Assembly: GCA_965204535.1 (NCBI GenBank)
Contig: CBDBEV010000001.1
Coordinates: forward strand, 1,536,001-1,600,000
DNA length: 64,000 bases
From: a bacterium
GTDB lineage: Bacteria > UBA8248
Direction: 5' to 3'
This document shows, piece after piece, positions 5,831 to 57,873 of the stretch (positions are counted from its first letter, which is position 1; every line of letters begins with the position of its first letter). The translations under genes were made by a program, and so were the position numbers. The notes below the pieces were generated by a model. That model saw nothing but the letters and a program-made list of their open reading frames with translations. It had not been told where the DNA came from and did not search any database.

Positions 5831-7612
5831 GAGACTGTGAAAGTATTCCCACGATTCTGGTGGGTGACGCTGGCGAGCGATGCCCGGGTTGTCTGTACAT
5901 GCTATCTTTACCGGTGAGTGAGATAACCACATAAAGGGTCACCACCATGTCCGAGAGACGTTATCAGGAGGTGCAGTCCCGAAGCCAGATGATGCTGCTT
6001 CCGCCGTGTCTGGACGACTACGTGTCCGAGCACAATGCGGTGCGCGCGATCGATGCGTTCGTCGGCACGCTGGACCTGGAGGCGCTGGGGTTCGCGCATG
6101 CCGAAGCGAACTGCGGCGCCGGTCAGCCGGCTTTCGACCCGGCGCTGCTGCTGAAGCTGTATCTGTACGGCTACCAGCACCGGGTACGGAGTTCGCGCCG
6201 TCTCGAAGCGGAGACGCGGCGCAATCTGGAAGTGATCTGGCTGTGCCAGGGTGCGACGCCGAGCTACAAGACGATTGCGGATTTTCGCAAGAACAATGTG
6301 GCTGCGCTGCAGGAGGCCAACCGGGAGTTCGTGCTGCTGTGCCGCGAACTCTCGCTGCTGGGCGGCAGCCGGGTGGCGGTCGACGGGACTTTTTTGAAGG
6401 CCGATGCGAACCTGGACAGCTTCCAAACCAAGCGGTCCCTGGCAAGGGACCTGAGGCGTTTGGAGAAGAGGATTGCGGCGTATCACCGGCAGTTGGACGA
6501 GGCGGATGCGCGCGGGGAGGAGTGTGGGGACGGTTCGGAGGATCCGGACCTGCCGGTGAAGCTCAAGGCCTTGATCGAGAGGCAACAAAAGAAGAAGGCA
6601 CTGCAAGAGCATTTGCAGGAAAGCGGAGAGCGTCAGGTATCGGGGGTCGATGCAGATGCTCGACTTCTGAGGAACGGCGATATAATGGTGGGCGGATACA
6701 ACTGCCAGATCGCGGTGGACGACAAGCACAAGCTGATTGTCGCGGAGGATGTGGTGCAGGACGGCAATGACTCCGCTCAGTTGGAGCCGATGATGACGAA
6801 AGCCGGCGAAGCCATGGGCAGCGAACGCCTGGTCGGCCTGGCGGATTCGGGCTACTTCAACGGCGCACAGTTGAAGAGTTGCGAAGACAAGGGAATGGAG
6901 GTGTATGTTCCGATACCGAACCAGACGGCCCGCAAGGGCAAGGACGGACGATTCGGCAGCGATGAATTCCGTTACGATGCGCAGGATGACACGTATGTCT
7001 GTCCGGCCGGAGAGCGTCTGGTTCGAGGCGGCACGACCACCGTCAGGGGCAGGCTGTATTACTTTTATCGCGGGACGGCGGCGGTTTGCCGGGACTGTTC
7101 GTTGTCGGGCCGATGCCTGACAAAGTCGAGATCGACGCGCAGGATACAACGCTGGGAGCATGAGGACGTGGTGGACCGGCATCGCAAGAAGATGAACGCC
7201 CGTGTGCCATTGATGCGCGGGCGAAGCACACTCGTCGAACATCCATTCGGTACGATCAAGCGCTGGGCGGGGATGGATCATTTTGTGATGCGCGGACTCG
7301 GCAAATGCCGCGGCGAATTCAGCCTGATGACGCTGGGTTACAACTTCAAGCGGGTCATGCGTGTGCTGGGCGGAGCTGCATTTGTGGAGCATTGTCTGCA
7401 AAAACAGCGGTTGGGGACGAATGGCGTGTGAACTTGAAGCCGATTCTTCGAGGACTTGACCGCGACCCCGAGCTGACCGGCCGCCGAGACGTTTCTCTCC
7501 CGGCTCTGCGGTGTTGTTGCTCCCGAAGTTGAAGACAGTGTCCGGCCATCGGGCTGCAAGCGTAAGCGAGCCCTGTTCCGGAGACTGTGAAATCCAATAC
7601 TCTCACAGTCTC
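5831..7612 (+). mobile_element. IS1182-family insertion sequence
   Basis: Terminal IRs GAGACTGTGAAAGTATT (5831-5847) and AATACTCTCACAGTCTC (7596-7612); 13-bp target duplication AGCGGCAACAACT at 5818-5830 and 7613-7625. Confidence 0.92.
5947..7431 (+). CDS. IS1182-family transposase
   Basis: G.PAFDP..LLKLYLYGY...SSRRLE, TIADFRK, DGT.LKA, GYNCQ, ADSGY, VEHPFGTIK. Confidence 0.93.
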   Translation: MSERRYQEVQSRSQMMLLPPCLDDYVSEHNAVRAIDAFVGTLDLEALGFAHAEANCGAGQPAFDPALLLKLYLYGYQHRVRSSRRLEAETRRNLEVIWLCQGATPSYKTIADFRKNNVAALQEANREFVLLCRELSLLGGSRVAVDGTFLKADANLDSFQTKRSLARDLRRLEKRIAAYHRQLDEADARGEECGDGSEDPDLPVKLKALIERQQKKKALQEHLQESGERQVSGVDADARLLRNGDIMVGGYNCQIAVDDKHKLIVAEDVVQDGNDSAQLEPMMTKAGEAMGSERLVGLADSGYFNGAQLKSCEDKGMEVYVPIPNQTARKGKDGRFGSDEFRYDAQDDTYVCPAGERLVRGGTTTVRGRLYYFYRGTAAVCRDCSLSGRCLTKSRSTRRIQRWEHEDVVDRHRKKMNARVPLMRGRSTLVEHPFGTIKRWAGMDHFVMRGLGKCRGEFSLMTLGYNFKRVMRVLGGAAFVEHCLQKQRLGTNGV

Positions 7613-38071: not shown

Positions 38072-38090
38072 GCCGCCCTCTTCTTCTTCG

Positions 38091-38237
38091 GATGACGGAT
38101 GACGGATGACGGATGACGGATGACGGATGACGGATGACGGATGACGGATGACGGATGACGGATGACGGATGACGGATGACGGATGACGGATGACGGATGA
38201 CGGATGACGGATGACGGATGACGGATGACGGATGACG
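38091..38237. repeat. Simple sequence repeat (GATGACG)21
   Basis: 21 perfect heptamers ending about 20 bp upstream of the autotransporter ATG. Confidence 0.97.
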
Positions 38238-38657
38238 GACTGTAGCCGATGCCGCCGTCTCACGCAAGCTCTCTATACAGTTTTCCATCTTTCGAGTACC
38301 CTCCCTATCTCACTGACCCGGCAGGAACTCTATGCATGAAAACCATATTTTGTCTTGAACAATGAAAACAATTATAGCATATCCGCGACGGAATCAACAT
38401 TCTGAAATCGCGTCCGGAACGGGCGTTCAGGAATTCCCGCCTCTCACGCCCGTGTCAGCCGCCCCTCGACTGCCGCCGGACTTCCACCTGCTGCACGGAC
38501 ACCGGTTCGCCCGGCGCACACCCCATCGATTACCGGCCGGGTTGGGCGTCAAGTGCGGTGGGACCGATCGCGACGAGGGCTTTGTCTCCGTTGTCCGGGA
38601 CAGGCGCGGTCCGGTCGTCGAATCCAGGAGAATCAATCAGGCCGGCGCCGAAGCGGT

Positions 38658-40431: not shown

Positions 40432-40562
40432 CATCGGCTACAGTCCGTCATCCGTCATCCGAAGAAGAGGGCGGCATGAAGTGCGCCCGGCAAAGGGCCG
40501 GCGCGCAACGACCGGCTTCACCGACTCCGGCAGGCGCCTGCCGTCCTGGCCTGCGCCCCCGG
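40432..40562 (+). repeat. Inverted copy of the autotransporter 5' leader (matches 37985-38251) with only 2 heptamers
   Basis: CATCGGCTACAGTC-(CGTCATC)n-CGAAGAAGAGGGCGGC-ATG...MKCARQRAGAQR.ASPTPAGACRP shared by both genes. Confidence 0.92.
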
Positions 40563-43360: not shown

Positions 43361-45016
43361 CTACTCCTCCTGCCGGTTCGCGCCGAACGCGCCGACCATG
43401 AGGCCATCATTCCCGTACGTCGAATGGAACACTCCGCCCACGACCTTCGGAACGCCGTCGTCGCCGTTGTCCATAAGATGACCGTTCCACCCGCCGTCGC
43501 CGGCGGCGGCCGTCCCGTCGATGGTCCACACCGTCTGCGCATACTCTGAACGGATGAAACTGATCGCTATGTCGCCTGTATTCGTGATGGAGGACTCCTT
43601 CAGCTCGACGGACCAGTTCCGCGCCCGGCCGTCCGCGCCCGTGAAGTCGTTTATGGCGCCCGAGATCATGTCGGTGTGGAAATCGGCCTCTAACGTCGCC
43701 GTCGCGGTGAAGCGGCCGGCGTCGTTCGTCCCCCCGGTGGGGCTCGAGAGAGCGTACAGGCCGGCGGCGCCGCCCCTGTACGTCGCCGTGCCGCGCAGGG
43801 CCGCGATGGTGGCCCCGGTGTCCGGGAGATCACGCTTCAGAAATAATGAGTACGCGGTATAGGTGTCGTCCGCGGACTTGTGGAGCCACCAGCCGTAGGA
43901 GGCATACTCCGTATCCGGCGAACTCATGACCCGGGCGTCCGGGTCCGCGGGCTTGAACGTCCAAACCGCATTGGCGGCGTCGAACGCGCCGGCGGCGGTG
44001 ACTCCGCCGAGATTGAAGCCCGGCCCGGCATGGCTGGCCGCGCACGTGCTTCCGTCAGCGGGATCGCAGCTGTACGTGCCCGGCACCCCGTGATAGCTGC
44101 CGGGGATCATCACGGCGACGTTGTTCTCGGGCAGCTTGAACCTCTTCAACCCCGCCGTATGGTCGAAGCTCGGGCTGGCAACCCGGCCGGCGGTGCCCTC
44201 GGTGGTCGTTTCGTCCAGCGTTCCGCCGGCGAAGCTGGCGCTGTACTGCGTCGAAAACTTCTCGCCCTCCTTCGGCTCCTCGACGTTCGAGTAGAAGACC
44301 GCCTCGTGTGTGCCACCACCTTCGGGCGCGGCCGTGTACCTCTTGCCTTCCCAGCCGTGGTTGGCGGCAACCATCGTCTGCTTGTCTTCCGACAGATAGT
44401 ATCTCGCAATTCCGAAATTCAGCGTTAAGCCGTCCGTTTCGAGGTCGGGATAGGTGCATCTTGGGTCAGATTCAAAGCAGGTTGATGGTGGAAGCAAAGG
44501 ATCATCGCCGAAGCCGTCGTACAGCTTCCTGGCGGTTTCGATCATGTCCGCCCTTGCCGCGTCGGCCGCCGCCTGCATCGCCGTCATGCGGGCCGTCCTG
44601 GCATTGTGGAAACGGGTCTCGAGCGCGGTGACGGTTCCGGTGTTCGCGGCCTTCTCCTCCGCCGGAACGCCGGCCGCCGCCGCTATCGCCGCCTTCGCCG
44701 CCGCGACCGCCGCCTCCGCGGCGCTCACCTCGGCGTCGGTGGAGTCGTCGTCCACCTCGCCTACCGCCGCCTGGGCGGCATCGAGCTTCATTTTGATGTC
44801 CGCGCGCTCCATGGCCAGGAGCTCCGCCGCCGTGACGCAAGCTCCGTCCATGTACCTGCCGCCACCGGCTTCACATGCCGCTTGCGGGTCCGGCATCTCG
44901 GCCGGCGTTTGCGCAGTGCCGCCGCCCCCGCCGCAGCCCGCCAGCGCAATCGTGAACGCCCCCGCCAGCGCGAAGGCGTAAAGCCTGTTTATCGGTTTCT
45001 CATATTTGAACGTCAT
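43361..45016 (-). CDS. TbpB-like surface lipoprotein (paralog A)
   Basis: AGGAGA RBS; lipobox LAGC-GGGGG; YGWWL, GTATY.GGAAG.YA, G.FTA.A.LEADF, terminal VGAFGA. Confidence 0.82.
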   Translation of the reverse strand: MTFKYEKPINRLYAFALAGAFTIALAGCGGGGGTAQTPAEMPDPQAACEAGGGRYMDGACVTAAELLAMERADIKMKLDAAQAAVGEVDDDSTDAEVSAAEAAVAAAKAAIAAAAGVPAEEKAANTGTVTALETRFHNARTARMTAMQAAADAARADMIETARKLYDGFGDDPLLPPSTCFESDPRCTYPDLETDGLTLNFGIARYYLSEDKQTMVAANHGWEGKRYTAAPEGGGTHEAVFYSNVEEPKEGEKFSTQYSASFAGGTLDETTTEGTAGRVASPSFDHTAGLKRFKLPENNVAVMIPGSYHGVPGTYSCDPADGSTCAASHAGPGFNLGGVTAAGAFDAANAVWTFKPADPDARVMSSPDTEYASYGWWLHKSADDTYTAYSLFLKRDLPDTGATIAALRGTATYRGGAAGLYALSSPTGGTNDAGRFTATATLEADFHTDMISGAINDFTGADGRARNWSVELKESSITNTGDIAISFIRSEYAQTVWTIDGTAAAGDGGWNGHLMDNGDDGVPKVVGGVFHSTYGNDGLMVGAFGANRQEE

Positions 45017-45384
45017 TAAGCGAGTCTCCTGAATACATGGAAAGGAACTTGACCTGGCCAATTCGATTGGAGAAGGGCCGACACCCCTCAAAGGGCTGCT
45101 TTAAGGGGGTTGAAAAACCCCTGAAGATGGGAATTGCTGCGACACGATCCCCGAGGTGCAGGCCGAGTCGGGGTGTCGGCTACGTTCATGAAACGCGAAG
45201 TGGGGGCCGCCCGTTGTTCCCCCTCCCGGCTCGAGGACTCAAACTCACAACCGGGAGCGGTACAGTTTGCTCTCACGAGGGAAGCAACCAACGGGCAACC
45301 CCCTTTTTCGCTCTCCTCATATCGCCTTGGGCCCCGCCGGGGCGGTGAAGCCCCGGAAGCCTGAAGGCGTCGTGCTCTTCGCTG

Positions 45385-47007
45385 CTACTGCTTGTTCACG
45401 CCGAAGGCGCCGACCATCCGGCCGGACGTGCTGTACGTCGAATGGAACGTGCCGGTCCCGACCTTCGCAACGCCGTCGTCGCCGTTGTCATAGAGAGCTC
45501 CGGACCACGCGCCGGCGGCGGCCGCGGCCGTCCCGTCGATCGTCCAGACCGTCTCGTTTCCGGCAGCGGCGGCAGTACCGTCACTACTGATTGCCCCGTC
45601 ATCGCCGACGGTGGACTTCTTCAACTCGACGGACCAGTTCCGCGACTGACCATCCGCGCCCATGAACTGGTCGATCGTGCCCGTGATCATGTCGGCATTG
45701 AAATCGGCTTCGAGCGTCGCCCGCGCGGTGAAGTGGCCGGCGTCGTTCGTTCCCCCGGTGGAACTGTAGAGAGCGTACTTGCCGGCGGCGCCGCCCATGT
45801 AGGTCGCCGTTCCACGCAGGGCCGTGATGCCGCTGGCGGGCGGGACGGTACCCCTGGCCGTCGCGAAAGCGCTCGCGGTGAAGGTCTCGCCGTCCTCGGA
45901 CTTGTGGATCCACCAGCCGTAGGAGACATACACCGTGTCCGCCACATCCGAGACCATGGCCGTCGGGCTGGTGGGCTTGAACGTCCAGGTCCCGCCGGCG
46001 AGGGTGAAGCCGCTTGTGGCTACGGTAGCGGAGCACGTGTTTCGATCAGCAGCAGCATCTGTAGGGGTGCAACTGTAAGTGCCGGACACCCCGTGATAGC
46101 TGCCAGGGATCATCACGGCGACGTTGTTCGCCGGCAAATCGAAGGTCTTGGTTCCTGCGGACTGGTCGAAGCTCGGGCTGGCAACGCGGCCCGTAACATA
46201 GCCAGTGAGGGCAGTGATATCCCCTGTTTCGCCGTCGGTGAGTGTGTACGCTTCATTGAACGGGTCGCCCTCCGTCGCGTCGCCGACGTTCGAGTAGACA
46301 TACGCCTCGTACGTGCCGGCATCGCCCGTGGGCTCGGCCGTGTGCCTCTTGCCCTCCCAGCCGTGGTTGGCGGCGACCGTCGTATCCTTGTCTACCGCCA
46401 GTGGGACGGTTGCGGCCGTGCCGATCGTCACGCTGATGACGCCGGCGGCGTCACTTGCGCCGGTTCGGACGTTGTCGGTATCGCCAAGGCCGTGCTCGAG
46501 GCCCTTGTATAGCTTACTGGCCGTCGCCATCATGGCCGCATCCGCGGCCTTCTGCTCATCGTCCATGGCGGCCATGCGGGCCATCTTGGCGGCGGCAAGC
46601 TGGGTTTCCAGCGCGGTGACCGTTCCGGTGTTCGCGGTTTTCTCTTCGTCCGGAATATTGGCCGCGGCCGCTATCGCCGCCTTCGCCGCCGCTATCGCCG
46701 CATCGGCCGCGCTCACCTCGGCGTCGGTGGAGTCGTCGTCAACCTCGTTGACCGCGGTGGTTGCCGCCATGATGGCCGTGCTGATGGCCGAGCGCTGCTC
46801 TGCCGCGAGATCCGCGGCCGAGGTGCAAGTGCCGTCCGCATTGTACCGACCCCCCTCATCCTCGCACGCCATTTGCGGGTCAGGCATATCGGTCGGCGTT
46901 TGCGTAGTGCTGCCGCCCCCGCCGCCGCAGCCGGCCAGCGCGACGGCGAACACGGCCGCCAGCGCGAAAGCGTAAAGCTTGTTTATCGGTTTCTCTTTGA
47001 ACATCAT
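45385..47007 (-). CDS. TbpB-like surface lipoprotein (paralog B)
   Basis: AGGAGGA RBS; lipobox LAGC-GGGGG; same barrel motifs; collinear with paralog A. Confidence 0.82.
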   Translation of the reverse strand: MMFKEKPINKLYAFALAAVFAVALAGCGGGGGSTTQTPTDMPDPQMACEDEGGRYNADGTCTSAADLAAEQRSAISTAIMAATTAVNEVDDDSTDAEVSAADAAIAAAKAAIAAAANIPDEEKTANTGTVTALETQLAAAKMARMAAMDDEQKAADAAMMATASKLYKGLEHGLGDTDNVRTGASDAAGVISVTIGTAATVPLAVDKDTTVAANHGWEGKRHTAEPTGDAGTYEAYVYSNVGDATEGDPFNEAYTLTDGETGDITALTGYVTGRVASPSFDQSAGTKTFDLPANNVAVMIPGSYHGVSGTYSCTPTDAAADRNTCSATVATSGFTLAGGTWTFKPTSPTAMVSDVADTVYVSYGWWIHKSEDGETFTASAFATARGTVPPASGITALRGTATYMGGAAGKYALYSSTGGTNDAGHFTARATLEADFNADMITGTIDQFMGADGQSRNWSVELKKSTVGDDGAISSDGTAAAAGNETVWTIDGTAAAAAGAWSGALYDNGDDGVAKVGTGTFHSTYSTSGRMVGAFGVNKQ

Positions 47008-47263
47008 TTAGTGAGTCCTCCTGAATACACAGTAGAAAAAGGGATTTTCCGTGAATTTCCGGCTTTCTCCGATTAACCTCCTTTCGTCAGCTTTTTTTCG
47101 GGCCTTCACAAACTGGTGATTCGTACTTTCGGCCGCCTGAAATACGGCGGACTTGAACCCTTTCATGATCCGGGCCGGTGGTTCGGCGAGACACATGTTC
47201 CTGCGGCATGCGCCCACCGTTCCCGGCCTCCAGAGGCGAGCCGCCTGCCACCCGGCCTGCCCG

Positions 47264-47451
47264 CCGATAATCGTTATTATCAGATGTGAGAAGCCCCGTT
47301 TTCCGCCGGGAGAGGCGTTTCGGGGCGCATCCGGGCCGTAAATGAGCGGGAAAAGACGCAAAACGGCGCCCGAAACCACTCCGGGGACCCCGGAATTGCG
47401 CTTGACATGGCCTTGAGAGGTGTTATATTTTCTGATAATAACGATTATCGG
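47264..47451. promoter_or_regulatory. Promoter-containing segment bounded by perfect 21-bp inverted repeats (candidate invertible switch 1)
   Basis: CCGATAATCGTTATTATCAGA (47264-47284) and TCTGATAATAACGATTATCGG (47431-47451); TTGACA 47402-47407 and TGnTATATT 47421-47429. Confidence 0.8.
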
Positions 47452-47529
47452 ATGTTAATTGTTGTAAAGATGTGGTAAAAAAACCGTTTCCGGCGGGCGA
47501 TTCTTCGTCGTCCGCCTTATATATGTTGC

Positions 47530-48564
47530 ATGGAATCGGGACGGCAACTCCACGAACGTGAATCGCCGCCGGAACTTCAGGGCGCCGGCCGAACGACAGA
47601 TCACGGAGAACCATGGGCGAAACCCGCGGCGCCGGGGAGACGCTCCCCCCTGGAAAAACCCGACGAGAGTCACTCACCGCACCTCGGTTCGTTCCGGGCG
47701 TCGGCTGATCTGGTGCGCGCCTCGATCGCCGGGAACACGCGCCGCGCCTACGAGGCGGCGCTGCGCGGTTTCGAGGAATCGGGGTGCCCCGAGACCGACG
47801 CCGGGGTGGCGGCCTACCTCACGGGGCTCTACGGGAAGGGCCGCTCGGCGGCCTGCGCCTCGATGGCGGTCGCGGCGCTTCGGTTCCGGGCGAGGCTGGG
47901 CGGCCGCTCCTCCCCGGTGGGTCCTTCGGCGCTGCGCGCCCTGGCGGGCTTCAGGCGTCTGGGTTCGGAGCGGGGCCGCGGCCCGGTGGACGGGGTGCGC
48001 TGGGAGGAGGCGGACCTCGCGGCGGCGCTGGCCGAGGGGACGGGGACCCTGGGGGGCCTGCGCGACGCGGCGGTCGTGGCAGTGGCGAGCGACGCCCTGC
48101 TCCGGGTGTCGGAGGTCGCGGCTCTGGACGTCGCCGACGTGAACCTCGGGGAGCAGACGGTGCGGATCCGCCGCTCGAAGACGGACCAGGAGGGTGTGGG
48201 CGTCGTACAGTACCTCGGAGAACCGACCGTGGCGCGCGTCGGGGCCTGGCTGGCGCGCGCGGGTATCGGGGAGGGAGCGCTCTTCCGGGGCCTGTACAAG
48301 GGGGGACGGCTTCGGCCCGGGCGCCTGACGGACAGGAGCATCCGGAGCATCATCGCGCGGTGGGGGAAGGCCGCGGGCGCCGAGGGGCGCGTGAGCGGCC
48401 ACAGCCTCCGGGTGGGGGGCGCGCAGAGCCTGGCCACGGCGGGGGCGTCGCTGGTCGAGATGCAACTCGCCGGGCGCTGGCAGTCGCCGGCCATGCCGGG
48501 ACGCTACGCGCAGGGACAGATCGCGAAACAGGGCGCCGTGGCGAGGCTGCGATACGGCCTGTGA
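47530..48564 (+). CDS. Tyrosine recombinase, Cre/TnpS-like (copy 1)
   Basis: NTRRAY N-domain; catalytic LLRVSE, RRSKTDQ, GHSLRVG, GRW, RY. Confidence 0.92.
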   Translation: MESGRQLHERESPPELQGAGRTTDHGEPWAKPAAPGRRSPLEKPDESHSPHLGSFRASADLVRASIAGNTRRAYEAALRGFEESGCPETDAGVAAYLTGLYGKGRSAACASMAVAALRFRARLGGRSSPVGPSALRALAGFRRLGSERGRGPVDGVRWEEADLAAALAEGTGTLGGLRDAAVVAVASDALLRVSEVAALDVADVNLGEQTVRIRRSKTDQEGVGVVQYLGEPTVARVGAWLARAGIGEGALFRGLYKGGRLRPGRLTDRSIRSIIARWGKAAGAEGRVSGHSLRVGGAQSLATAGASLVEMQLAGRWQSPAMPGRYAQGQIAKQGAVARLRYGL

Positions 48565-48593
48565 GGTCCGTCCGTTTTCTCCCGAATATCTCT

Positions 48594-49277
48594 CTACCGC
48601 CTCTTCCTCCTCCGGGCGGAGGCCCACTTCTCGAGGTCTTCGAGCAGGTAGCGCACCCGGTATCCGATGCGAAGAAAATCCGGCCCCTCTCCGCTCACGC
48701 GGTAGCGCTCCAGCGTCTTGGGCGAGAGGCCGAGCCAGGCGGCCGCCTCCCGCGTGTTCAGGTGGTTCTCCTTCGCGCGCTCATCGGCGTCTCCCGCGGC
48801 CCCGGGTTCCCCGGCGGCGTCCCACGTCCCGTCGAACGGGTCGGGCAAGTCCGCGAGCCTCTCGCGTATGGCGCGGATCTCCTCTCCCGTCGCGTTGGCC
48901 GCCATCCAGGCGCGCACCCGGTCGAAGGTCTTGAGATACGGCGAGGCGCCCCGGCGCAGCCTCCCCACGAAGGAGGGATTCCCCACGGTCTCCTCGCCCA
49001 GGATCGAGACCTTGGTCCCGCTCACCACGAGAAACGCCTCCACCTCGGCCCGCAGGAGCGGTCCCAGCGGCGGATACCCCATGAACGCGAGCACCCGGTC
49101 CGCCGTGTCGACCCGCAGGGGCCGCCCCCGGGCCTGCAGGCCCACGAAGCCGGGAACCCCCAGCGCGCCCACCCCGAAGCGCCTCGCGCTCATCCCTCGG
49201 CGCGCGCGCCAGAGCGCAATGCTCCGGCGCAGCCGCTCGTCCAGCGGGGCGCCGGTATCGTCTTTAAACGCGGTCAT
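48594..49277 (-). CDS. DNA-binding protein with two Cro-like repeats and a C-terminal AlpA/excisionase-like HTH
   Basis: Repeated FG..A.G.P.FV..L..G.......DRV.A.M units; LNTREAAAWLGLSPKTLERYRV.GEGP.F..IG.RVRY. Confidence 0.75.
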   Translation of the reverse strand: MTAFKDDTGAPLDERLRRSIALWRARRGMSARRFGVGALGVPGFVGLQARGRPLRVDTADRVLAFMGYPPLGPLLRAEVEAFLVVSGTKVSILGEETVGNPSFVGRLRRGASPYLKTFDRVRAWMAANATGEEIRAIRERLADLPDPFDGTWDAAGEPGAAGDADERAKENHLNTREAAAWLGLSPKTLERYRVSGEGPDFLRIGYRVRYLLEDLEKWASARRRKRR

Positions 49278-49477
49278 GGCGCGCGAACATAAGGAAAGGA
49301 CGAGCGCCCGTTCAATCGTTGTTTCTAGCGCGGAAGGTACACCCGGGAAGAGTCCGCGCCTGCGTTCGTGCGCGGACCGCTCATCGGTTCAGCCTGAAAT
49401 CACGGGCGTTTTCCAGAAAACGAAGGTCGCCGGAGAACGTGCAGCGGGGCGCTACGGAAAAAAAGGAACAATGTCGC

Positions 49478-49610
49478 TCACACCGCGGCGCCCTGTTTCA
49501 CGAGTCGCCCCTGCGCATGACCGGCGATTGGCGGCGCCCGGCGAGTTGCATCCCGACCGGAGAAGCCCCTGCCGCGGCAAGGCGCTGCGCGCTGCCCGTC
49601 CGCAGGTCGA
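49478..49610 (-). pseudogene. Degenerate third copy of the recombinase 3' end, inverted
   Basis: Minus strand GCGCAGCGCCTTGCCGCGGCAGGGGC...GATGCAACTCGCCGGGCGC...GAAACAGGGCGCCG matches 48421-48540. Confidence 0.7.
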
Positions 49611-49812
49611 AACGGCGCCGATTCCCTTGTTTCATTCGTTTTTATCGGATCGTATGCTGATGTTCCGGGTCGTCCGCCAAATACAATACGGCCAAGCCGA
49701 AACTGGCGGACATTCCTTCGTGGATTGTATGCCAACGGCCCGGATTTTCCCGGTCCTGTCTGATTGACCGTTTTGCCTTACACGTCTTTCGATGATTGGT
49801 CGGGCATGGTGG

Positions 49813-50865
49813 TCACGCCGGTATTGCCGTCAGATCGGACAATTCGCCTTTCTCGAAGGTTTTGGGAGCCCACCCCGGCAAGAAGGGCGTATCCATGCGG
49901 TCGAGTTGCAAGGCGTCGCGCATCCCCTGGGGGATGCTGTCAAGCCATTCGGGTATACCCGGCAGGGGCGATGAATCGGGGTCGTAGTAGAGACCGCCCA
50001 TTTCGGGCATTCCGGTGTCAGGCCAATGGCCCTCGTCGCGCTTGAGCAGTTGCACCGGCCAGGGTTCCCTGCGGGTTTCCACCAGGAATATCTCGTCCGG
50101 CGCATTTGTGCACGCTGAGAGCAGCGAAGGGAGAAGATCTTCGCGGAATTCGAAGCTCGTAAGGCCCGGATCACCGCTTTCCAAAACCAGAACGGTACGT
50201 GCGCCATCCGCCTTGCAGGCCTGAAGCTTGGGGCATTTCCTGGAAAAGGCATCCCGGAGACTGTCCAAGCGCGGGCCTTCCATATCGTCCGGAGGAATGA
50301 ATCTGAACGAGAGTGAGCCTGGCTTTTTTTGCACGAACCGTGCAATCGGCCATTGCAGCAGTTCGAATTCACAGTCAAATCCCGGCGGGGTTCCATGAAT
50401 ACGATCATCGGACCAATAAGGATTGCGGATTGATAAGATTTGGCCGGAGCTCCGCTCGCGCAGGGATTTCTCGCTCGCGCGGATCCATTCGACGAGATCA
50501 CCAAGTGCCCGTTCTCTTTTTTTGACTCGGCCTTTGGGCAGGGAAACGTCAATCGGAAATTGCAGTTCGTAGTAGGCCGGGCTTGAGAATGGATCCGGGA
50601 TAGCTTTTCTGATGTGCTCGATGATTTGGTTCGCGACGACCACGATCGATGTCTGATTTTCGATCGACTCGATCCAAGTGTGCTCAATCACATATTCCCG
50701 GGAGCCGAGCTTCAGACGCAGATCGACAGGAGGACCGCCTCTCTCCTTGCCCGGATGGCGGACATCCGAGCGCGTCTCGCGTGTCCATTTTTCGAGGATC
50801 CTGACGACCGCGTCACACACCCTGCCCTCGTTGTTCGGCACGATCATGGCCGACGAATCCCTCAT
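49813..50865 (-). CDS. Hypothetical protein with possible PD-(D/E)XK-like motif
   Basis: 350-aa ORF with protein-like composition; PPVD...IEHT motif. Confidence 0.5.
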   Translation of the reverse strand: MRDSSAMIVPNNEGRVCDAVVRILEKWTRETRSDVRHPGKERGGPPVDLRLKLGSREYVIEHTWIESIENQTSIVVVANQIIEHIRKAIPDPFSSPAYYELQFPIDVSLPKGRVKKRERALGDLVEWIRASEKSLRERSSGQILSIRNPYWSDDRIHGTPPGFDCEFELLQWPIARFVQKKPGSLSFRFIPPDDMEGPRLDSLRDAFSRKCPKLQACKADGARTVLVLESGDPGLTSFEFREDLLPSLLSACTNAPDEIFLVETRREPWPVQLLKRDEGHWPDTGMPEMGGLYYDPDSSPLPGIPEWLDSIPQGMRDALQLDRMDTPFLPGWAPKTFEKGELSDLTAIPA

Positions 50866-51574
50866 TTTCCCTGATTTACCCGTTCCCGCTCACGGGCCAT
50901 ATATTCTATCATGCCGCGTTTGTCTGCATCGACTCGCCAAGTGCGGTTATATGCCGGTCACCGCATCTCTATGTCCAATGCGGGTGTCCATGTACGTCCA
51001 CATACGGTCATCGATACGGGATCGGGAAAACGGTACTCGAACGGAAAACTTTCAAGCTCGCGTAATCGATTCGGACCGGTCCTTGCATCTCCATACGGGC
51101 CTGCGGCCAGGAAAATGTTTGCCGACACGGATTCGCCGGAGTGCGCGGCAGTTTTAATCAATCCGCTTTCATTTTGATTACGGGCCAACCAGGGAAGATT
51201 CATGGCAACCTGTTAACTAATTTTATTACAGCACCTTACAGGATAATCGAAAATGCCCGAAACTGCTCTTGTCTCTAAGACGATCGTAATACCGATGGAA
51301 GACGGACAGGCTCTTGTTGCCTTTTCCTTCCGTCGAGAGCCTTCACGTGGTGCTGTCGCCATCTCTCCTGCCCGTGCTTGATGCACAGCACCATGCCCTG
51401 TTCGATCGTGAAGTTTCCAAATCCTATGCCACTCGCGGGTATCGCGCACGATCCCGTGCCCTTTTCTTTCGGGCGTCGCGCCCCTCGCACGCGGCGGCGC
51501 GGGCAGGTAAGACATGACATAGGCGCAAAGCGCGAGAATCAGGTGAATAATGCGAACGAAACGAGCCCGCATCA

Positions 51575-53905
51575 TCATTTCCTGCGGTCGAGAGCCATCA
51601 GCAGAGGCGGAAGAAGGAGAAAGTCGGTGAGGAGTCCGAAGATGATCGTGATCGAGACCATGAGGCCGAGCGTCCAACTGCCCTCGTAACCCGATAAGGT
51701 GAACACCAGGAAGCCCGCCGACAGAACCACGGTCGTTGTCCAGAGCGCATTTCCAACGGTCTGGAAAGTGGCGCGCACGGCCTCGGGCGCGGAAAGCCCC
51801 TCGCGGCGGCTTTTCAGGTATTTGCTCAAAAAGTGAATCGTGTCGTCCACGATGATTCCGAAAGCGATGACGGTCATCACGGAGCCGGCAAGACTCACGT
51901 GGCTTACCAGATAACCCCACAGGCCGAAGGTCATGGCGGCGGGGATGAAGTTGGGCACGAGGCTGATGAGGCCCAGGCGCACGTTTTTGAAAACCAGGAT
52001 CAGAATCAATGAAATCAGGGTCATGCCGATGAACGTTCCGCGCAGCATGCTTTCCATGTTTCGTTGCGTGAGATGAGCGAAAATCATGCTTAAACCCGAT
52101 GCTTCGGCCGCGAATTCGGGTATGTTGGCGCGCAGCCAGGCCTGCGCACGCATATCGAGATTACGCAAGCCTCGAGCCGAGACCCCCTGGACCGTTACGG
52201 TCATTCGTGTTGCGGATTTCGCGACGTCGATGCGGTCGTTGAGGTCGGCGCCGAACGGAAGGGAAAACTCGTAAAGCAGCAGATATTGCGCGGCGAGCCT
52301 GGGGTTCTCAGGCAAACGATGGAAAGCCGGATCGTCACCGTGCATGTTCTTGTTCAGGCGCTTCATGATATTCGTGAAGGCCCGGACGTGGGTGACTTCG
52401 GGCTGTTTTCGGTACCAATCGGCGAAGGCCTCGACTTTTTTCAAGTATTCAGGGTCGGTAATGCCGCCCTCGCGCCCCGCTTTCAGCGAGTATTCCAGCG
52501 AATTGAGACCGGTCAGGTTCTTGATGACGAAATCCGTGTCGCGCCGGAACCGGTATCGCTCATCGAACTGTTTCGTCCAATCCTCGCTCAGTTCGTTTCG
52601 GGGGATGCCGGTGAGCAAAGCAATCGTCAAAATGGAGACGAACGAGAGCAGAAACGCGCGGCGTTCGACGACGAATGCGCCGAAGCGATCGAAAAAGCCG
52701 GACCCCTCATTGCGGCGGCGAGGCGCGCGCAGAGGCAGGATCGAGAGCAACGCAGGCAGAAGCGTCATGGAGTAGAAGAAGACGCACAAAACCCCGAACG
52801 CCACCAGATTGCCCAGTTCCTGAAAGGGCGGTGAATCCGAGGTGTTCAGGCTCAAGAACCCGATTGCGGTCGTTAGCGAGGTGAGAAAAACCGGCCAGAT
52901 GTTGCTGCGAAGCGATTCCATAATCGCCGCGTTCCTGTCCAGACCTTTTCGCATGGCCAGAAGAGTGGCCGAGACGATGTGGATCGAATGGGCAACGGCG
53001 ATCACCATGACGATGATCGGGAGGCCGGCGGTGATGGGGCTGAACACCAGGCCTGCCCACCCGGTGAATCCCATGGTGGTGTTGATGGAGAATATGATCA
53101 CGAAAACGATGGCCAGGGTGCCGAGTACGGAGCGAAGCAGAAGGGCCGTACCGATTATGACGACGAAAAATGCGATGGGCCCGATGTTCTCCATGGTACC
53201 CGCGGTAGCATCGGCGACGGTGCGGTTCAAGACGATGTTGCCGGTCAGGTAGTATTCAAAGTCGGGACGACTCGTGCGGGCCTTGCCCAGAAGGGCGTTC
53301 AGATAATCGGTTATCTCAACTGCCACATGTTCTTTTTTTTCGGGCAAGACGAATGTGATCGCCAACCCACTCACGCGCCCGTCCCGGGAGATCAGACGCC
53401 CGACGAGGTCTGCGGAGTTCAGCGCAGTCTTCCTGATTCTCGCGAGGTCGGCGTCACCGAGCGCGCTCGCGTCATCGACGAGCGGCTCGACGATCAAGTC
53501 ATCTCCCTCCGCCCAACTGTGGTTATAGTTCGTGAGAGAGTCGACCCGGCTCGAATGAGGCGTCTTCCAGGCGGCTTCGGTCAACTCCTCCATGGCGCCG
53601 AGCGCCCTGCGGGTGAACACCGAGCCCTCCCGGGGCGCAATGGCGATGAGCGCGGTATCGGACTTGGAATAGGTATTCTGCAAGGTATCGAAAGCGGCGA
53701 GTTGGGGATTGTCTTCGCCCAACAAAATACGATAATCATCCGAGACGGTGATGTAGCGCGCTCCCGCCGTCATAAGCGCCATGAGCAGAGAAACCAACCC
53801 GACGACCAGCCAACGGCGGCGCAGAACAAGGTCTGAATAGTGATCCACCTGCAAGAGATTCATCGCCTCAGTGAGAAAGGCCGGGGATCGCTCCGCGTTG
53901 TACAA
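51575..53905 (-). CDS. MMPL/RND-family membrane transporter
   Basis: Two repeats of TM plus large loop plus 5 TM; TSLTTAIGFLSL, FGIIVDDTIHFL. Confidence 0.9.
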   Translation of the reverse strand: MYNAERSPAFLTEAMNLLQVDHYSDLVLRRRWLVVGLVSLLMALMTAGARYITVSDDYRILLGEDNPQLAAFDTLQNTYSKSDTALIAIAPREGSVFTRRALGAMEELTEAAWKTPHSSRVDSLTNYNHSWAEGDDLIVEPLVDDASALGDADLARIRKTALNSADLVGRLISRDGRVSGLAITFVLPEKKEHVAVEITDYLNALLGKARTSRPDFEYYLTGNIVLNRTVADATAGTMENIGPIAFFVVIIGTALLLRSVLGTLAIVFVIIFSINTTMGFTGWAGLVFSPITAGLPIIVMVIAVAHSIHIVSATLLAMRKGLDRNAAIMESLRSNIWPVFLTSLTTAIGFLSLNTSDSPPFQELGNLVAFGVLCVFFYSMTLLPALLSILPLRAPRRRNEGSGFFDRFGAFVVERRAFLLSFVSILTIALLTGIPRNELSEDWTKQFDERYRFRRDTDFVIKNLTGLNSLEYSLKAGREGGITDPEYLKKVEAFADWYRKQPEVTHVRAFTNIMKRLNKNMHGDDPAFHRLPENPRLAAQYLLLYEFSLPFGADLNDRIDVAKSATRMTVTVQGVSARGLRNLDMRAQAWLRANIPEFAAEASGLSMIFAHLTQRNMESMLRGTFIGMTLISLILILVFKNVRLGLISLVPNFIPAAMTFGLWGYLVSHVSLAGSVMTVIAFGIIVDDTIHFLSKYLKSRREGLSAPEAVRATFQTVGNALWTTTVVLSAGFLVFTLSGYEGSWTLGLMVSITIIFGLLTDFLLLPPLLMALDRRK

Positions 53906-53967
53906 CTCAAGCGCAAAGCAGTTGATTCACCTGGTGTATGCAATTCAAATCACGTCACAGGGATCGT

Positions 53968-55149
53968 TCACCATGGACTGGATTGCGAAGCGCGAACGTG
54001 ATCGGGCATCCTGTAGCTGATGCCTCCCCTGTCGTATTGCGCGGCGTCGAAAATCTGGGAGAACGCGTTTTGCCGGAAGAGCGCATTGCCACTCAGCATC
54101 TCGAAAAGGCGTTCCCTGAACCGGTAATAGCCCAGCACCAGGGTTCTGCTCCTCAGGGTTTTCGGATACTGGTAGGTGTCGGCGAGTTCGTTGCCTATGA
54201 GCGCTCGCGAGAGGCGGTAGGCGTACTTTTCCAGAGATTTGATTTGGGCTTCATCCGTCAGGCCCGACATTATCAGAATGGCCTTGAATACCGTATTCGC
54301 CACGGCCAGACAATCGGAGTCAGGCGGCGGTTCGCACATGGAAGCGACCTCGCGAAGGTCTCTGGCCTCTTGCTCGCTGGTGAACAGTATGGTTTCGGGA
54401 ACTCCAAGTAGATAGCCGGCGTAGCGCCAGATACTGACGATGCTCTCCTTTTCCTCCTGCGTGAGCCTGCCGCCCAGCGAAATCGCGTGTTCGAACTGGC
54501 GAATCGAGAAGGTGTACAGGGAAACCCCGCCTATGTGGGCCGCGCTCAGCGGCAACCCCCAGGCTTCGTGATCCCACTCGTCGGAATTCTTCAGCAGATG
54601 CCTGATCCGGGCATGGACGAAGCGGATGCGCATGGATATCTTCCATCCGTCGCCCTCTCTGCCCAGGCCGCCGGGAAAATATATCTCGACCATGTGGCGG
54701 TTGTTTTGCCGGAGGCGTCTGATGGCGCCGTCATCCAGTCCGGTCACGCGTCCGGTGATGAAGAAGGATTTGGCGACGAGCGTCCCGAAGCCTTCCACCG
54801 CGCTGCCGACGGCGTATGCGATGAGCATGTTGGTCATGTTTCTGTAGAAGGCGCGCATGCCCGGCCCGAAGGCCTCGAAGTCGACCCAGGGGGGCACGTC
54901 GGGATCGACTTTCTCGAAGAAATCGCGCAGGACTTTCGGCGCATCGCGCAGAACACCTTCATGCTGTTCTATGCCGGCCTCGATGAACGCGTGCAGATCA
55001 TAGGAAGGTAAAGAGGCAAGCTCCTCCATGACCGGGTCCAGGTCGGCATCGCCTATGGTGGTGTGCCGGATGTAGTTGTCCGCCGCCGCCTCATCGTGGA
55101 GGCGGGCTTCGGCGTAACCTTCGGTATACGCTGATGGACACTTCTCCAT
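53968..55149 (-). CDS. MpaB/Lcp-like (DUF2236) oxygenase-family protein
   Basis: GD...D.V, P.WVD, TGR......RRL, RIRFVHARIR, W....WG.P, WRYAGYLLGVPE. Confidence 0.82.
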   Translation of the reverse strand: MEKCPSAYTEGYAEARLHDEAAADNYIRHTTIGDADLDPVMEELASLPSYDLHAFIEAGIEQHEGVLRDAPKVLRDFFEKVDPDVPPWVDFEAFGPGMRAFYRNMTNMLIAYAVGSAVEGFGTLVAKSFFITGRVTGLDDGAIRRLRQNNRHMVEIYFPGGLGREGDGWKISMRIRFVHARIRHLLKNSDEWDHEAWGLPLSAAHIGGVSLYTFSIRQFEHAISLGGRLTQEEKESIVSIWRYAGYLLGVPETILFTSEQEARDLREVASMCEPPPDSDCLAVANTVFKAILIMSGLTDEAQIKSLEKYAYRLSRALIGNELADTYQYPKTLRSRTLVLGYYRFRERLFEMLSGNALFRQNAFSQIFDAAQYDRGGISYRMPDHVRASQSSPW

Positions 55150-55178
55150 ATCAGTATCCTCGCAATAGTTTCCGGCGG

Positions 55179-55484
55179 CTAAACCTCCGGTTGACCCACA
55201 GGAGCGTCCGCGGAACTCTCTTCAACCTTCATGCCGGCTGAAGACACTCCATGGTCAGGACCTGGCCGCCTGTCATCGTTTCTAGGGCCGCCGGAACATG
55301 CCGTTCTCTCGATGGCGGGAAACCGAATCCGCTTGTTTGCCAATTCGGGGTTACCCGCAAACCCTCTGGCCTCCTCTTTCATGTGCCTGATCGCCTTATC
55401 CAGCAAGTTCAAATGTTGAACCCGCCGCCGGCACCTCCATGCCACGATGACGGCCACAACCAGGAGTACGGCGATGTAAGTCAT
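55179..55484 (-). CDS. Small hypothetical protein with N-terminal hydrophobic helix
   Basis: AAGGA RBS; YIAVLLVVAVIVAW; first gene of the leftward run. Confidence 0.5.
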   Translation of the reverse strand: MTYIAVLLVVAVIVAWRCRRRVQHLNLLDKAIRHMKEEARGFAGNPELANKRIRFPAIERTACSGGPRNDDRRPGPDHGVSSAGMKVEESSADAPVGQPEV

Positions 55485-55540
55485 GACTTGTTTCCTTGGT
55501 CCGTCTCCAAAGGCGAGCCGCCTCGCATCCGGCCTGCCCG

Positions 55541-55739
55541 CCGCTAATTGTTATTATCGGATGTGAGAAGCCCCGTTCTCCGCCGGGAGAAGCGTTTCGG
55601 GGCGCATATGGGCCGTAAATGAGCGAAACATGAGCGAAAAAAGACGCAAAACGGCGCCCGAAACCCCTCCGGGGACCCCGGAATCGCGCTTGACATGGCC
55701 TTGAGAGGTGTTATGTTTTCCGATAATAACAATTAGCGG
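55541..55739. promoter_or_regulatory. Promoter-containing segment bounded by perfect 21-bp inverted repeats (candidate invertible switch 2)
   Basis: CCGCTAATTGTTATTATCGGA (55541-55561) and TCCGATAATAACAATTAGCGG (55719-55739); TTGACA 55690-55695 and TGnTATGTT 55709-55717; interior homologous to switch 1. Confidence 0.8.
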
Positions 55740-55752
55740 ATTCCAAAAACCC

Positions 55753-55791
55753 GCCGTTTCGCCGGTATTCCCCTGCGAAACGGCTTTTTTT
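55753..55791 (+). terminator. Intrinsic terminator just right of switch 2
   Basis: GCCGTTTCGC-(12 nt)-GCGAAACGGC followed by T7. Confidence 0.75.
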
Positions 55792-55855
55792 ATTGGAAAT
55801 TCCCCGCCGTCGTCTATACTCGGCAATCGACGAGGCCCTGGAGCGGCCTCAGGGA

Positions 55856-56836
55856 ATGGAAACGGCCGCCGACCCGGAAGGTTGGCTTCTCGCCATGACG
55901 ACTGGGGCAACACCGCCCGACCCGGAACAGGACATCGCTTTGACGAGAAGGCCGGCCCGACCGGCCCGTGCGGCCGCCGACCTGGCGAAGGCGTCGATGT
56001 CTAAGAACACGCGGCGAGTGTACGAGACGGCCCTGCGGAGGTTCGAGCGCTCGGGAAACCCCGAGACCGACGCCGGGATAGCGGCGTACCTGGGGGATCT
56101 CTACGAACAGGGGCACTCGGCGGCCGTGGCCGCGATGGCGGTCGCGGCGCTTCGCTTCCGGGCGAAGCTGAACGGCCGGCCCTCCCCGGCGGGGGCGGCC
56201 TCGGAGCGGGTGCTGGCCGGCTTCAGGCGCCTGGCCGCAGAGCGCGGCCGCGGCCAGGTGGTGGGGGTGCGCTGGGAGCAGGCGGACCGCGCGGCGGCGC
56301 TGGCCGAGGGGACGGGGACCCTGGGGGGCCTGCGCGACGCGGCGATCGTGGCGGTGGCGAGCGACGCCCTGCTCCGGGTGTCGGAGGTCGAGGCGCTCGA
56401 CATCGAGGACGTGGACCTGAAGGAGCAGACGGTGCTGATCCGCCGCTCGAAGACGGACCAGGAGGGTGTGGGCGTCGTGCAGTACCTCGGAGAACCGACC
56501 GTGGCGCGCGTCGGGGCCTGGCTGGCGCGCGCGAGTATCGAGGAGGGAGCGCTCTTCCGGGGCCTGTACAAGGGGGGACGGCTTCGGCCCGGGCGCCTGA
56601 CGGACAGGAGCATCCGGAGCATCATCGCGCGGTGGGGGAAGGCCGCGGGCGCCGAGGGGCGCGTGAGCGGCCACAGCCTCCGGGTGGGGGGCGCGCAGAG
56701 CCTGGCCTCGGCGGGGGCGTCGCTGGTCGAGATGCAACTCGCCGGGCGCTGGCAGTCGCCGGCCATGCCGGGACGCTACGCGCAGGGACAGATCGCGAAA
56801 CAGGGCGCCGTGGCGAGGCTGCGATACGGCCTGTGA
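55856..56836 (+). CDS. Tyrosine recombinase, Cre/TnpS-like (copy 2)
   Basis: Same catalytic motifs; C-terminal half nearly identical to copy 1; start uncertain (ATG 55856 chosen). Confidence 0.92.
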   Translation: METAADPEGWLLAMTTGATPPDPEQDIALTRRPARPARAAADLAKASMSKNTRRVYETALRRFERSGNPETDAGIAAYLGDLYEQGHSAAVAAMAVAALRFRAKLNGRPSPAGAASERVLAGFRRLAAERGRGQVVGVRWEQADRAAALAEGTGTLGGLRDAAIVAVASDALLRVSEVEALDIEDVDLKEQTVLIRRSKTDQEGVGVVQYLGEPTVARVGAWLARASIEEGALFRGLYKGGRLRPGRLTDRSIRSIIARWGKAAGAEGRVSGHSLRVGGAQSLASAGASLVEMQLAGRWQSPAMPGRYAQGQIAKQGAVARLRYGL

Positions 56837-56859
56837 GATCCGTCCGGGATGAGCCCGGC

Positions 56860-57025
56860 CTCATCGAGACTTTCGTCGAGACCCCGCGCTGCACCGGCCC
56901 CGTCTGGAGGGCATCGGGATGGGCCCGCGTCGGCGCCACACAGGAACAGACGCTACGACAAGCCTGGAAAGGACGTCTGGCTGAGGCCGCTCCGCAGCAA
57001 CCGGAAGCAGGTCCTCAACCGCTGA
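56860..57025 (+). pseudogene. DUF4338 3' remnant
   Basis: LIETFVETPRCTG..WRASGW..VG.T and DKPGKDVWLRPL...KQVLNR; homologous to 42712-42900 in the opposite orientation. Confidence 0.75.
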
Positions 57026-57058
57026 AACAACTCCCATCACCCTGCCGCCGAATCGTTA

Positions 57059-57873
57059 TTGCGCCAGGCTAAGCCCTGGAGAGGAGGATGCCATGACCTG
57101 GAACCTCTTATAGCGACTCAGCGGGTTCGACCCCCGTCCGGCAAAGGCGAAGCCGTCCAGCCAAAAGCGAGTCTTGCATGGCGTGCGGCAACGCGCGTCG
57201 TGAAGCGTCGACAGCAGGTGACGAAGCGGCGGGATAAGCCTCGAAATCGGCCAATCGATGACGCCTTCATTGTTAAGCAGGTGGGGGCAGCACCGGAAGC
57301 GCCGCTATCGGCGAGGCGCAACGGGTCGTCCGGGGTCGTGGGCCGGCGCAAAGTCACGGGATGGGTCGCCAGGGAACCTGGGAGATCCTGCTCCTGCCCG
57401 TGGGCAAGGATGCTGGAAAGGGGATGCCGGCATGCAAATCCAGGCCCCGGCCCGTCGCCGGGCCTGTACGGCGGCGGGAGCGCTATATGGCGGACACGAA
57501 CCCGGCAGGCGTCCGCGGAGCCGACCGGCGAAAACAATAAGCCGAAGGACATGCAAGGGCAGGAAGTCGTAGCGCCCTGATAGTACCGCTGAAGGCGGGG
57601 AACCGTGGCCATCGGGACCCGCCGGAGGGAAGCGGGGCGTCATCTGTACAGAGCCACTGATGGGAAACGTTGGAGGAAACCCTGAGTTCCACGAACACGT
57701 ACACGAAACAGCAGTGGATAGCCGAACAGGCGAGGGAGCGGTCATTCCTCGACCTGCGGATTAAGGGCGCAAAGCTCCTTGAGCGAACCTGTCAGGTGAG
57801 GAACCGAGTGCGTCAATCGCGCACGCTCGGGTCTGTGGGGGGCGGGGCGCAGCAATGCCCCCGCCTACCCGGC
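57059..57873 (+). mobile_element. Group II intron lacking most of its RT ORF
   Basis: 5' TTGCG; ATAGTACCGCTGAAG...GGAGGGAAG motif; domain V GAACCGAGTGCG-TCAATC-GCGCACGCTCGGGTC (57801-57833); domain VI hairpin with bulged A; stub TKQQWIAEQAR. Confidence 0.82.

Follow-up and report, generated by a model that had tools for sequence, protein, structure and literature searches.

The two inverted-repeat modules in the window, the whole 64,000-nucleotide stretch analysed here, are probably two of 17 phase-variation switches in this genome, each flipped by a Cre-like recombinase through loxP-like ends with matching spacers. Sequence comparison places both modules in what is likely a family of invertible promoter-like segments of about 190 bp. 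In the genome of the window (G000; 4.56 Mb in two contigs, C1 and C2), BLAST with the segment interior finds 17 copies and a search for the exact promoter pattern also finds 17. The two-switch, four-state system envisaged in the initial annotation is therefore not supported. Full cassettes occur almost only within the same genus, with DNA search matching 17 of 41 genomes, and we extracted 60 copies from 12 genomes. Pair counts refer to 59 of these, leaving out the copy that straddles the break of contig C1; a contig-end fragment in G003 and a diverged copy in G032 fall below the 50-nt cut-off and are hence absent from the set.

In the mechanism we propose, the recombinase would flip the segment by strand exchange within the 6-bp spacer of both loxP-like ends, which means that the two spacers must match and the binding arms may differ. 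With the promoter facing the target gene the switch would be ON, and with the promoter facing the recombinase side it would be OFF and damped by a terminator. Eight intact recombinase copies would also serve, in trans, the nine switch copies that have none, and modules 1 and 2 would flip largely independently of each other.

Structure, orientation and targets of the probable switches

A degenerate 21-mer search allowing up to three mismatches finds exactly four places in the window, all with zero mismatches, and none in 100 dinucleotide shuffles. Two of the places form module 1 (47264-47284 on the plus strand, 47431-47451 on the minus strand) and two form module 2 (55541-55561, plus; 55719-55739, minus). 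This confirms that each arm matches its own partner at 21 of 21 positions and that the modules differ from each other at three, namely positions 4, 9 and 19. Each 21-mer is itself an imperfect palindrome of a 7-bp arm, a 6-bp spacer and a 7-bp arm, with the loxP-like family consensus CCGnTAA-N6-TTAtcrG. Position 9 is the second base of the spacer, which reads TCGTTA in module 1 and TTGTTA in module 2 (TAACGA and TAACAA on the other strand), and the claim of one spacer change stands; the other two differences lie in the arms. The left sites are 8,277 bp apart, as the earlier estimate of about 8.3 kb had it, and the modules are alike over a stretch that starts about 35 bp before the left site and ends with the right site. 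Rfam gives no match at either module.

In module 2, the target-side site (55541-55560, plus) consists of CCGCTAA (55541-55547), the spacer TTGTTA (55548-55553) and TTATCGG (55554-55560). The invertible interior (55561-55719), oriented by its flanks, has its promoter pointing away from the target operon and is predicted to be OFF. A sigma70-type promoter-like site, TTGACA-16-TATGTT with TG before the -10 (55690-55717, plus), would supply the promoter function; its -10 ends 2 nt before the right site, which places the predicted start within the inner arm. The recombinase-side site (55720-55739, minus) carries the spacer TTGTTA at 55727-55732, or TAACAA on the plus strand. Just outside it stands a terminator-like hairpin with a run of seven T (55753-55791, plus; z -3.6 for 55724-55800), predicted to silence the OFF-state transcript. 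A second promoter-like site, TTGGAA-16-TATACT (55793-55820, plus), follows the hairpin here, as one does in many other copies, and is a candidate switch-independent promoter of recombinase 2, a Cre-like tyrosine recombinase (55856-56836, plus; 326 aa from this ATG, start codon uncertain; PF00589). Autoregulation of the recombinase by the flip was considered and is doubted, since the terminator-like hairpin and the second promoter-like site separate the switch site from the gene. The presence of a terminator agrees with a survey of gut invertons (PMC11892184), according to which invertases close by are in general not under the control of the inverton promoter. Just past recombinase 2 there is a group II intron domain match (RF02005, 115 bits, 57128-57345), and an inverted partial copy (56854-57034) of a DruA-like fragment (PF14236, 42712-43209) lies 14 kb from the latter.

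Module 1 is built in the same order. Its target-side site (47264-47283, plus) reads CCGATAA, spacer TCGTTA (47271-47276) and TTATCAG; its promoter-like site, TTGACA-16-TATATT (47402-47429, plus), matches 11 of 12 consensus positions and is in the predicted OFF orientation; and its recombinase-side site (47432-47451, minus; spacer TCGTTA at 47439-47444) is followed by a terminator-like hairpin (47492-47516, plus) and by Cre-like tyrosine recombinase 1 (47530-48564, plus; 344 aa). Beyond this lies an excisionase-like HTH_17 gene (48594-49277, minus; PF12728), and many cassettes have such a gene after the recombinase. A 92-bp inverted piece of the recombinase 3′ end (49515-49606), located upstream of the HTH_17 gene, recurs in other cassettes.

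These features hold across the family. Within the TTGACA-16-TAtatT element, TTGACA is present in all 60 copies and the 2-nt gap to the site in 58, and a hairpin plus T-run (at or below -10 kcal/mol within 140 nt) is found on 26 of 60 recombinase sides against none of 60 target sides. When the interior and inner arms were compared with the outer arms and flanks, seven of the 60 copies proved to be reversed, in what would be the ON orientation: two in G000 (one of them at C2:2391241), three in the related genome G002 and one each in G005 and G014. The two modules of the window have the orientation of the majority. One G002 copy (L044) and the G000 copy at C2:2207302 occupy a single locus, with flanks colinear at 94-97% and the segment reversed. 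Both orientations are thus seen among paralogues and at one orthologous locus in two genomes, and, as in an inverton, inverted sites bound the segment and the boundary between orientations lies in the repeats, at the spacer. The proposal of recombination-type sites was in this respect borne out: they lie beside a Cre-like tyrosine recombinase, and the segment exists either way round. Over window positions 46200-57200, Logan contigs of four runs contain no strand-changing joint, contigs of this kind dropping rare variants, and three of them run unbroken across the left site of module 2.

Judged by motifs, 56 of the 60 copies face the start of a lipoprotein or autotransporter-like gene, two lie at contig ends and two face other genes; one autotransporter-like gene was binned as a lipoprotein, which does not affect the sum. 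One ON target in G000 encodes Calx-beta and cadherin-like domains. Module 1 fronts two tandem lipoproteins, a predicted surface lipoprotein with the lipobox LAGC in its sequence (45385-47007, minus) and a paralogue that is likely co-transcribed (43361-45091, minus). The first has no Pfam match; its Atlas look-alikes carry TbpB_B_D (score 0.88), which we take as a lead only. Module 2 is the exception. The first gene behind it is a 101-aa ORF with a hydrophobic N-terminus (55179-55484, minus), followed by an MpaB/Lcp-family oxygenase (53968-55149, minus; PF09995) and an MMPL/RND-type exporter (51575-53905, minus; PF03176), both predicted to be under its control. In G013, a 41% identical homologue of the 101-aa ORF precedes an MpaB-type gene without an upstream switch site, and similarity to the G013 leader ends about 25 nt before the ATG of the ORF at module 2, indicating that the cassette probably replaced a native promoter. 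Elsewhere in the window, a heptamer tandem repeat, (CGGATGA)n, occupies the 5′ end of an autotransporter gene (38089-38239; short copies at 40432-40475) and is a candidate slippage switch, which would be a second mode of phase variation.

Covariation and diversity of the spacers

In 58 of the 59 complete copies, which comprise 23 spacer types over the 12 genomes, the two ends have the same spacer. Shuffling partners within genomes gives a mean of 14 matched spacers and a maximum of 28 in 20,000 trials, a test that overstates significance, related copies not being independent; the 23 types nevertheless need many separate events. Position by position, the within-pair match is 59, 59, 59, 59, 59 and 58 of 59, and covariation is restricted to these six positions. 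Outer arms match within the pair in three copies and inner arms in eight. The initial annotation had read all three inter-module differences as compensatory and the whole arms as kept identical within a pair. Its spacer change is indeed typical of the family, but identity at positions 4 and 19 is not general (3 and 15 of 59 copies), and the whole 20-mer is identical within the pair in only two copies, which are the two modules of the window. The covariation it had proposed to look for across homologous modules is accordingly present in the spacers and absent from the arms. Both sites of module 1 carry arms of the family's right type and both sites of module 2 arms of its left type, a uniformity that looks like local conversion.

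Additional spacer-matched pairs beyond the 59 occur in L072, L082, L083, L088 and L106. The single mismatched pair, in G002 (L036, about 6026-6225; TTGCCG versus TTGCCA), is possibly an intermediate in spacer change or a locked switch. Covariation confined to the spacer is what one would expect of an exchange in which six bases become heteroduplex and the arms serve for binding only, by analogy with the systems treated in PMC12282940 and PMC1479339. A new spacer mutation could then be copied to the partner end through the heteroduplex formed during a flip, which would yield paired changes without two mutations.

Whether spacers also insulate the switches from one another is a separate question, and the strict orthogonality first suggested for modules 1 and 2 finds no support in the genome-wide comparison. 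Spacers recur within a genome, with 13 types among 17 copies in G000 and eight among 16 in G002, rather than one unique spacer per switch. Four pairs share a spacer in G000, namely TCGTTA, TTACTG, TTGCTA and TTGCTG, and 12 do so in G002, where TTGACG occurs four times, and 32 of the 136 G000 pairs, the window pair included, are one base apart. Neighbours are no more different than shuffled copies: across six distance cut-offs from 50 kb to 1 Mb, selection for differing neighbour spacers was not significant. Moreover, Cre tolerates some single spacer mismatches, and loxP and lox511 are partly compatible, according to PMC1479339. Different spacers would lower recombination between copies and probably not abolish it, and the sequences point to switches that are only partly orthogonal. 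Nor would the spacer alone protect the 8.3 kb between the modules, as had been supposed. This segment also lies between the genes of recombinases 1 and 2, whose 3′ parts are direct repeats of 98-99% identity, and homologous recombination could delete it whatever the spacers.

In its strong version, the idea is that selection maintains the spacers as an address code, by which every switch is fully orthogonal and the DNA lying between copies is protected. It draws on the speed at which spacers change. On trees built from the interior, positions 3-6 show 15, 21, 9.5 and 11 changes where held-out interior columns average 3.4, and among the 24 closest recombinase pairs the same positions have 0.365 differences per site, compared with 0.072 for fourfold-degenerate sites and 0.11 for the interior. 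The spacer thus changes at about 3-5 times the rate of the DNA around it. Three orthologous loci of G000 and G002 have one spacer-base difference each, none of 21 copy pairs within 200 kb has a common spacer, and the two TCGTTA copies are located in the two islands at the ends of a probable 1.1-Mb inversion, described below. However, the absence of same-spacer pairs within 200 kb lacks significance, as only 1.37 would be expected (P 0.22), and a random draw would give as many spacer types (P 0.23 and 0.45). The 12 same-spacer pairs that coexist in G002 and the many pairs one base apart in G000 are likewise at odds with full orthogonality. Heteroduplex repair or conversion between copies could itself give fast change, and conversion among recombinase genes lowers the benchmark against which the rate is judged. 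We therefore regard the fully orthogonal code as doubtful. As to the spacer variety itself, fast drift appears the better account, with selection for insulation the lesser, though by no means negligible, contender.

Recombinase, genomic islands and the nature of the sites

The best PDB matches of recombinase 2 are Cre (E 2.5e-12), with residues 57-302 aligned and homology over both domains, and 17 of its 19 PDB matches are Cre or the Cre variant Tre; it falls below the cut-off of every NCBIfam model. All eight full recombinase copies in G000 retain the catalytic R, K, H-x-x-R, W and Y set, and each adjoins a cassette, accounting for eight of the 17 switch copies. Among the 59 copies, an intact recombinase core lies within 1.5 kb of 25 and none was found for 34, some of which end at contig ends. 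Of 41 genomes of the class, 13 have the Cre-like gene, largely the cassette-bearing ones. Assignment of the recombinase to the sites is by association. Among 8,000 scored, 1,117 relatives of the enzyme reach E 1e-30. The same site consensus adjoins some relatives whose records bear the labels Binatia, Terriglobia, Longimicrobiales, Dehalococcoidia and Pseudomonadales, where sites are single, paired or bracketing the gene. An example of the last is L106:3758-4926, labelled Pseudomonadales, in which two spacer-matched inverted sites bracket the recombinase gene itself. At nine of 24 recombinase loci examined there was no site within 4 kb, and several others had a single site only.

The same cassette is present in six Nitrospinota-labelled records (L076, L079, L084, L088, L090 and L101), whose names may point to a sponge habitat. 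A diverged switch copy from another family of the class (L073:3320-3520) has a matched 7-bp core instead of 6 bp. A pattern scan of metagenome contigs returned 17 loci, none of them in this switch family and most with unmatched spacers. An unrelated inverton of 176 bp appears in L111, L112, L115, L118 and L126 (about 1501-1676; 650-825 in L118), with perfect CCGATAA-GAAATA-TTATCGG ends and both orientations assembled (L111 versus L115 and L118). It sits between a flagellin-like gene and a small tyrosine-recombinase-like gene, as identified from translations.

Window positions 1-58423 belong to a larger island. A comparison of G000 with G002 reveals a reciprocal exchange in which G002 joins C2:1499131 to C2:459994 (reversed) and C2:1594424 (reversed) to C2:488147, leaving islands at C2:459995-488146 and C2:1499132-1594423, the latter including the window segment. 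An 11-bp attachment-like core that is single in G002 is duplicated in G000 at the two outer ends, C2:1499121 and C2:459994, so that an inversion of about 1.1 Mb appears to have split one integrated element. Each island holds one of the only two complete TCGTTA copies (module 1 and C2:462535), which are in opposite orientation, and a collision between their spacers is a possible cause of the inversion. We treat this as a lead, as misassembly is also possible and G000 and G002 differ by many rearrangements. An attempt to pin the crossover failed, with too few diagnostic bases and with other inverted repeats common to both islands (recombinase and HTH genes at 89-94%, lipoprotein genes and a 142-bp repeat at 97%). 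Integration at a tRNA was rejected, since none of 13 island junctions is at a tRNA and the nearest is 4.2 kb away. The only unpaired site found in G000 (C2:561247-561266) also has the spacer TCGTTA; it stands behind a target-leader remnant, with a flipped copy 6 kb away.

Both ends of contig C1 fall within the spacer of a single switch site (C1:1-11 and C1:1593640-1593653, with a 4-nt overlap), and the 5-kb lipoprotein-plus-switch unit around this break is absent from the colinear site in G002. A break inside the spacer is unlikely by chance and may reflect mixed orientations in the reads. A split of C1 from C2 via their common TTGCTG spacer was ruled out, the two ends of C1 being adjacent in G002.

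An alternative is that the sites serve a mobile element in resolution or attachment, or act as operators for autoregulation, and that inversion is an occasional by-product without a regulatory role. Many cassettes do lie at island ends beside the excisionase-like gene, they occupy different loci in G000 and G002, single sites precede recombinase relatives in other phyla, the promoter overlaps the site, and 53 of 60 copies share one orientation. Yet the sites are paired in inverted, not direct, orientation around a conserved promoter, terminator-like hairpins stand on one side only, linkage is almost exclusively to secreted-protein genes, the cassette is retained after loss of the recombinase, and the island ends bear a different core, the 11-bp sequence. 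This alternative is improbable.

Less probable again is that host XerC/XerD, not the neighbouring Cre-like protein, flips the segments at pdif-like sites: the switch sites do carry a dif-like core, ATAA-N6-TTAT, XerC/D homologues are present in the genome, the probable dif has GCCGATAA in its left arm and many switch copies have no adjacent recombinase, but dif's conserved right arm TTATGTAAA is in no listed switch site, the sites are symmetric as for a one-protein recombinase, without the asymmetry and the conserved XerD arm of a dif site, and the CC of the dif arm is not constant across the genus. The genomes that have the cassette are largely those that have the Cre-like gene, and the site accompanies this gene in other phyla as well. 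The probable chromosomal dif (G000, C1:1394747-1394774) is a single copy 14 kb from the GC-skew maximum; it was found in 17 of 17 other genus genomes searched and shares GATAA-N6-TTAT with the switch sites. A dnaA-like ORF lies at C2:1868540, at a skew minimum.

Related systems and implications

Inversion of promoters by a Cre-like recombinase, our preferred reading, has parallels in several known systems. In Mycoplasma penetrans, invertible promoters reportedly stand before paralogous mpl lipoprotein genes and are flipped by a tyrosine recombinase (Horino et al. 2009, as cited in PMC3599477), a single one there as against several copies here. Cre in its native role resolves dimers at directly repeated sites. 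Cre/loxP of phage P1, with its spacer variants lox511 and lox2272, offers the best sequence-based structural relatives, and it has in common with our system a W in place of the second catalytic H and a palindromic site with six exchanged bases between an invariant A and T, as described in PMC1479339. The two differ in arm sequence and length, and the lox variants are engineered, whereas the switch spacers here are natural.

The principle of a spacer code is not new, having been proposed for RecV of Clostridioides difficile, where, according to PMC12282940, six switches each have a unique spacer. The two systems share several invertible switches served by one type of tyrosine recombinase and controlling mostly surface traits, two binding motifs around a 6-bp spacer at each end, and spacers identical within a switch. 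In contrast to RecV, which is described there as having no N-terminal domain, the enzyme here is a full Cre-like protein with up to eight cis copies. The 16-17 cassettes per genome are near-identical, with spacers often common or one base apart, their arms are short (7 bp), and they occupy different loci in close relatives. Acinetobacter pdif (pXerC/D) sites show reversible inversion between identical 6-bp central regions even where arms differ, and no inversion was detected between sister pairs whose central regions differ (PMC9947245). That system, as described there, uses host XerC/D and asymmetric 11-bp arms, is found on plasmids and has no invertible promoter. Our literature search, with most subscription journals and the supplements of inverton catalogues (which might list these loci) outside its coverage, found no paper on this switch family, and the part of PMC11602134 consulted names neither sponges nor Nitrospin*. 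New here are the 17-copy inventory, the excess rate of spacer change, the finding that neighbouring copies differ no more than chance would have it, the case of module 2 as a switch that took over a non-surface operon, and the lead on the inversion.

It is tempting to join these observations into one broader reading, which we offer as speculation and consider even less likely than the strict spacer code. A mobile, self-contained cassette of promoter, terminator and Cre-like recombinase would spread within the chromosome and capture operons, in module 2 joining its target 25 nt before the first ATG; its spacer address would diversify under selection, 3-5 times faster than neutral neighbours, and so escape cross-talk; and a TCGTTA collision between module 1 and C2:462535 would have inverted 1.1 Mb. 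If this were true, 17 switches would give up to about 130,000 cell states, and the enzyme would amount to a Cre-like tool provided by nature, for which at least 23 spacers work.

For the rule that tyrosine recombinases need homologous spacers, the 59 site pairs, with covariation that goes no further than the six exchanged bases, form a natural set of test cases, and they far outnumber the six C. difficile switches behind the spacer-code proposal. The family provides a Cre-like enzyme whose site is short and occurs in nature with many different spacers, and it shows how such a switch duplicates and captures new genes. For the uncultured lineage that carries it, the inventory points to combinatorial surface variation on a large scale.
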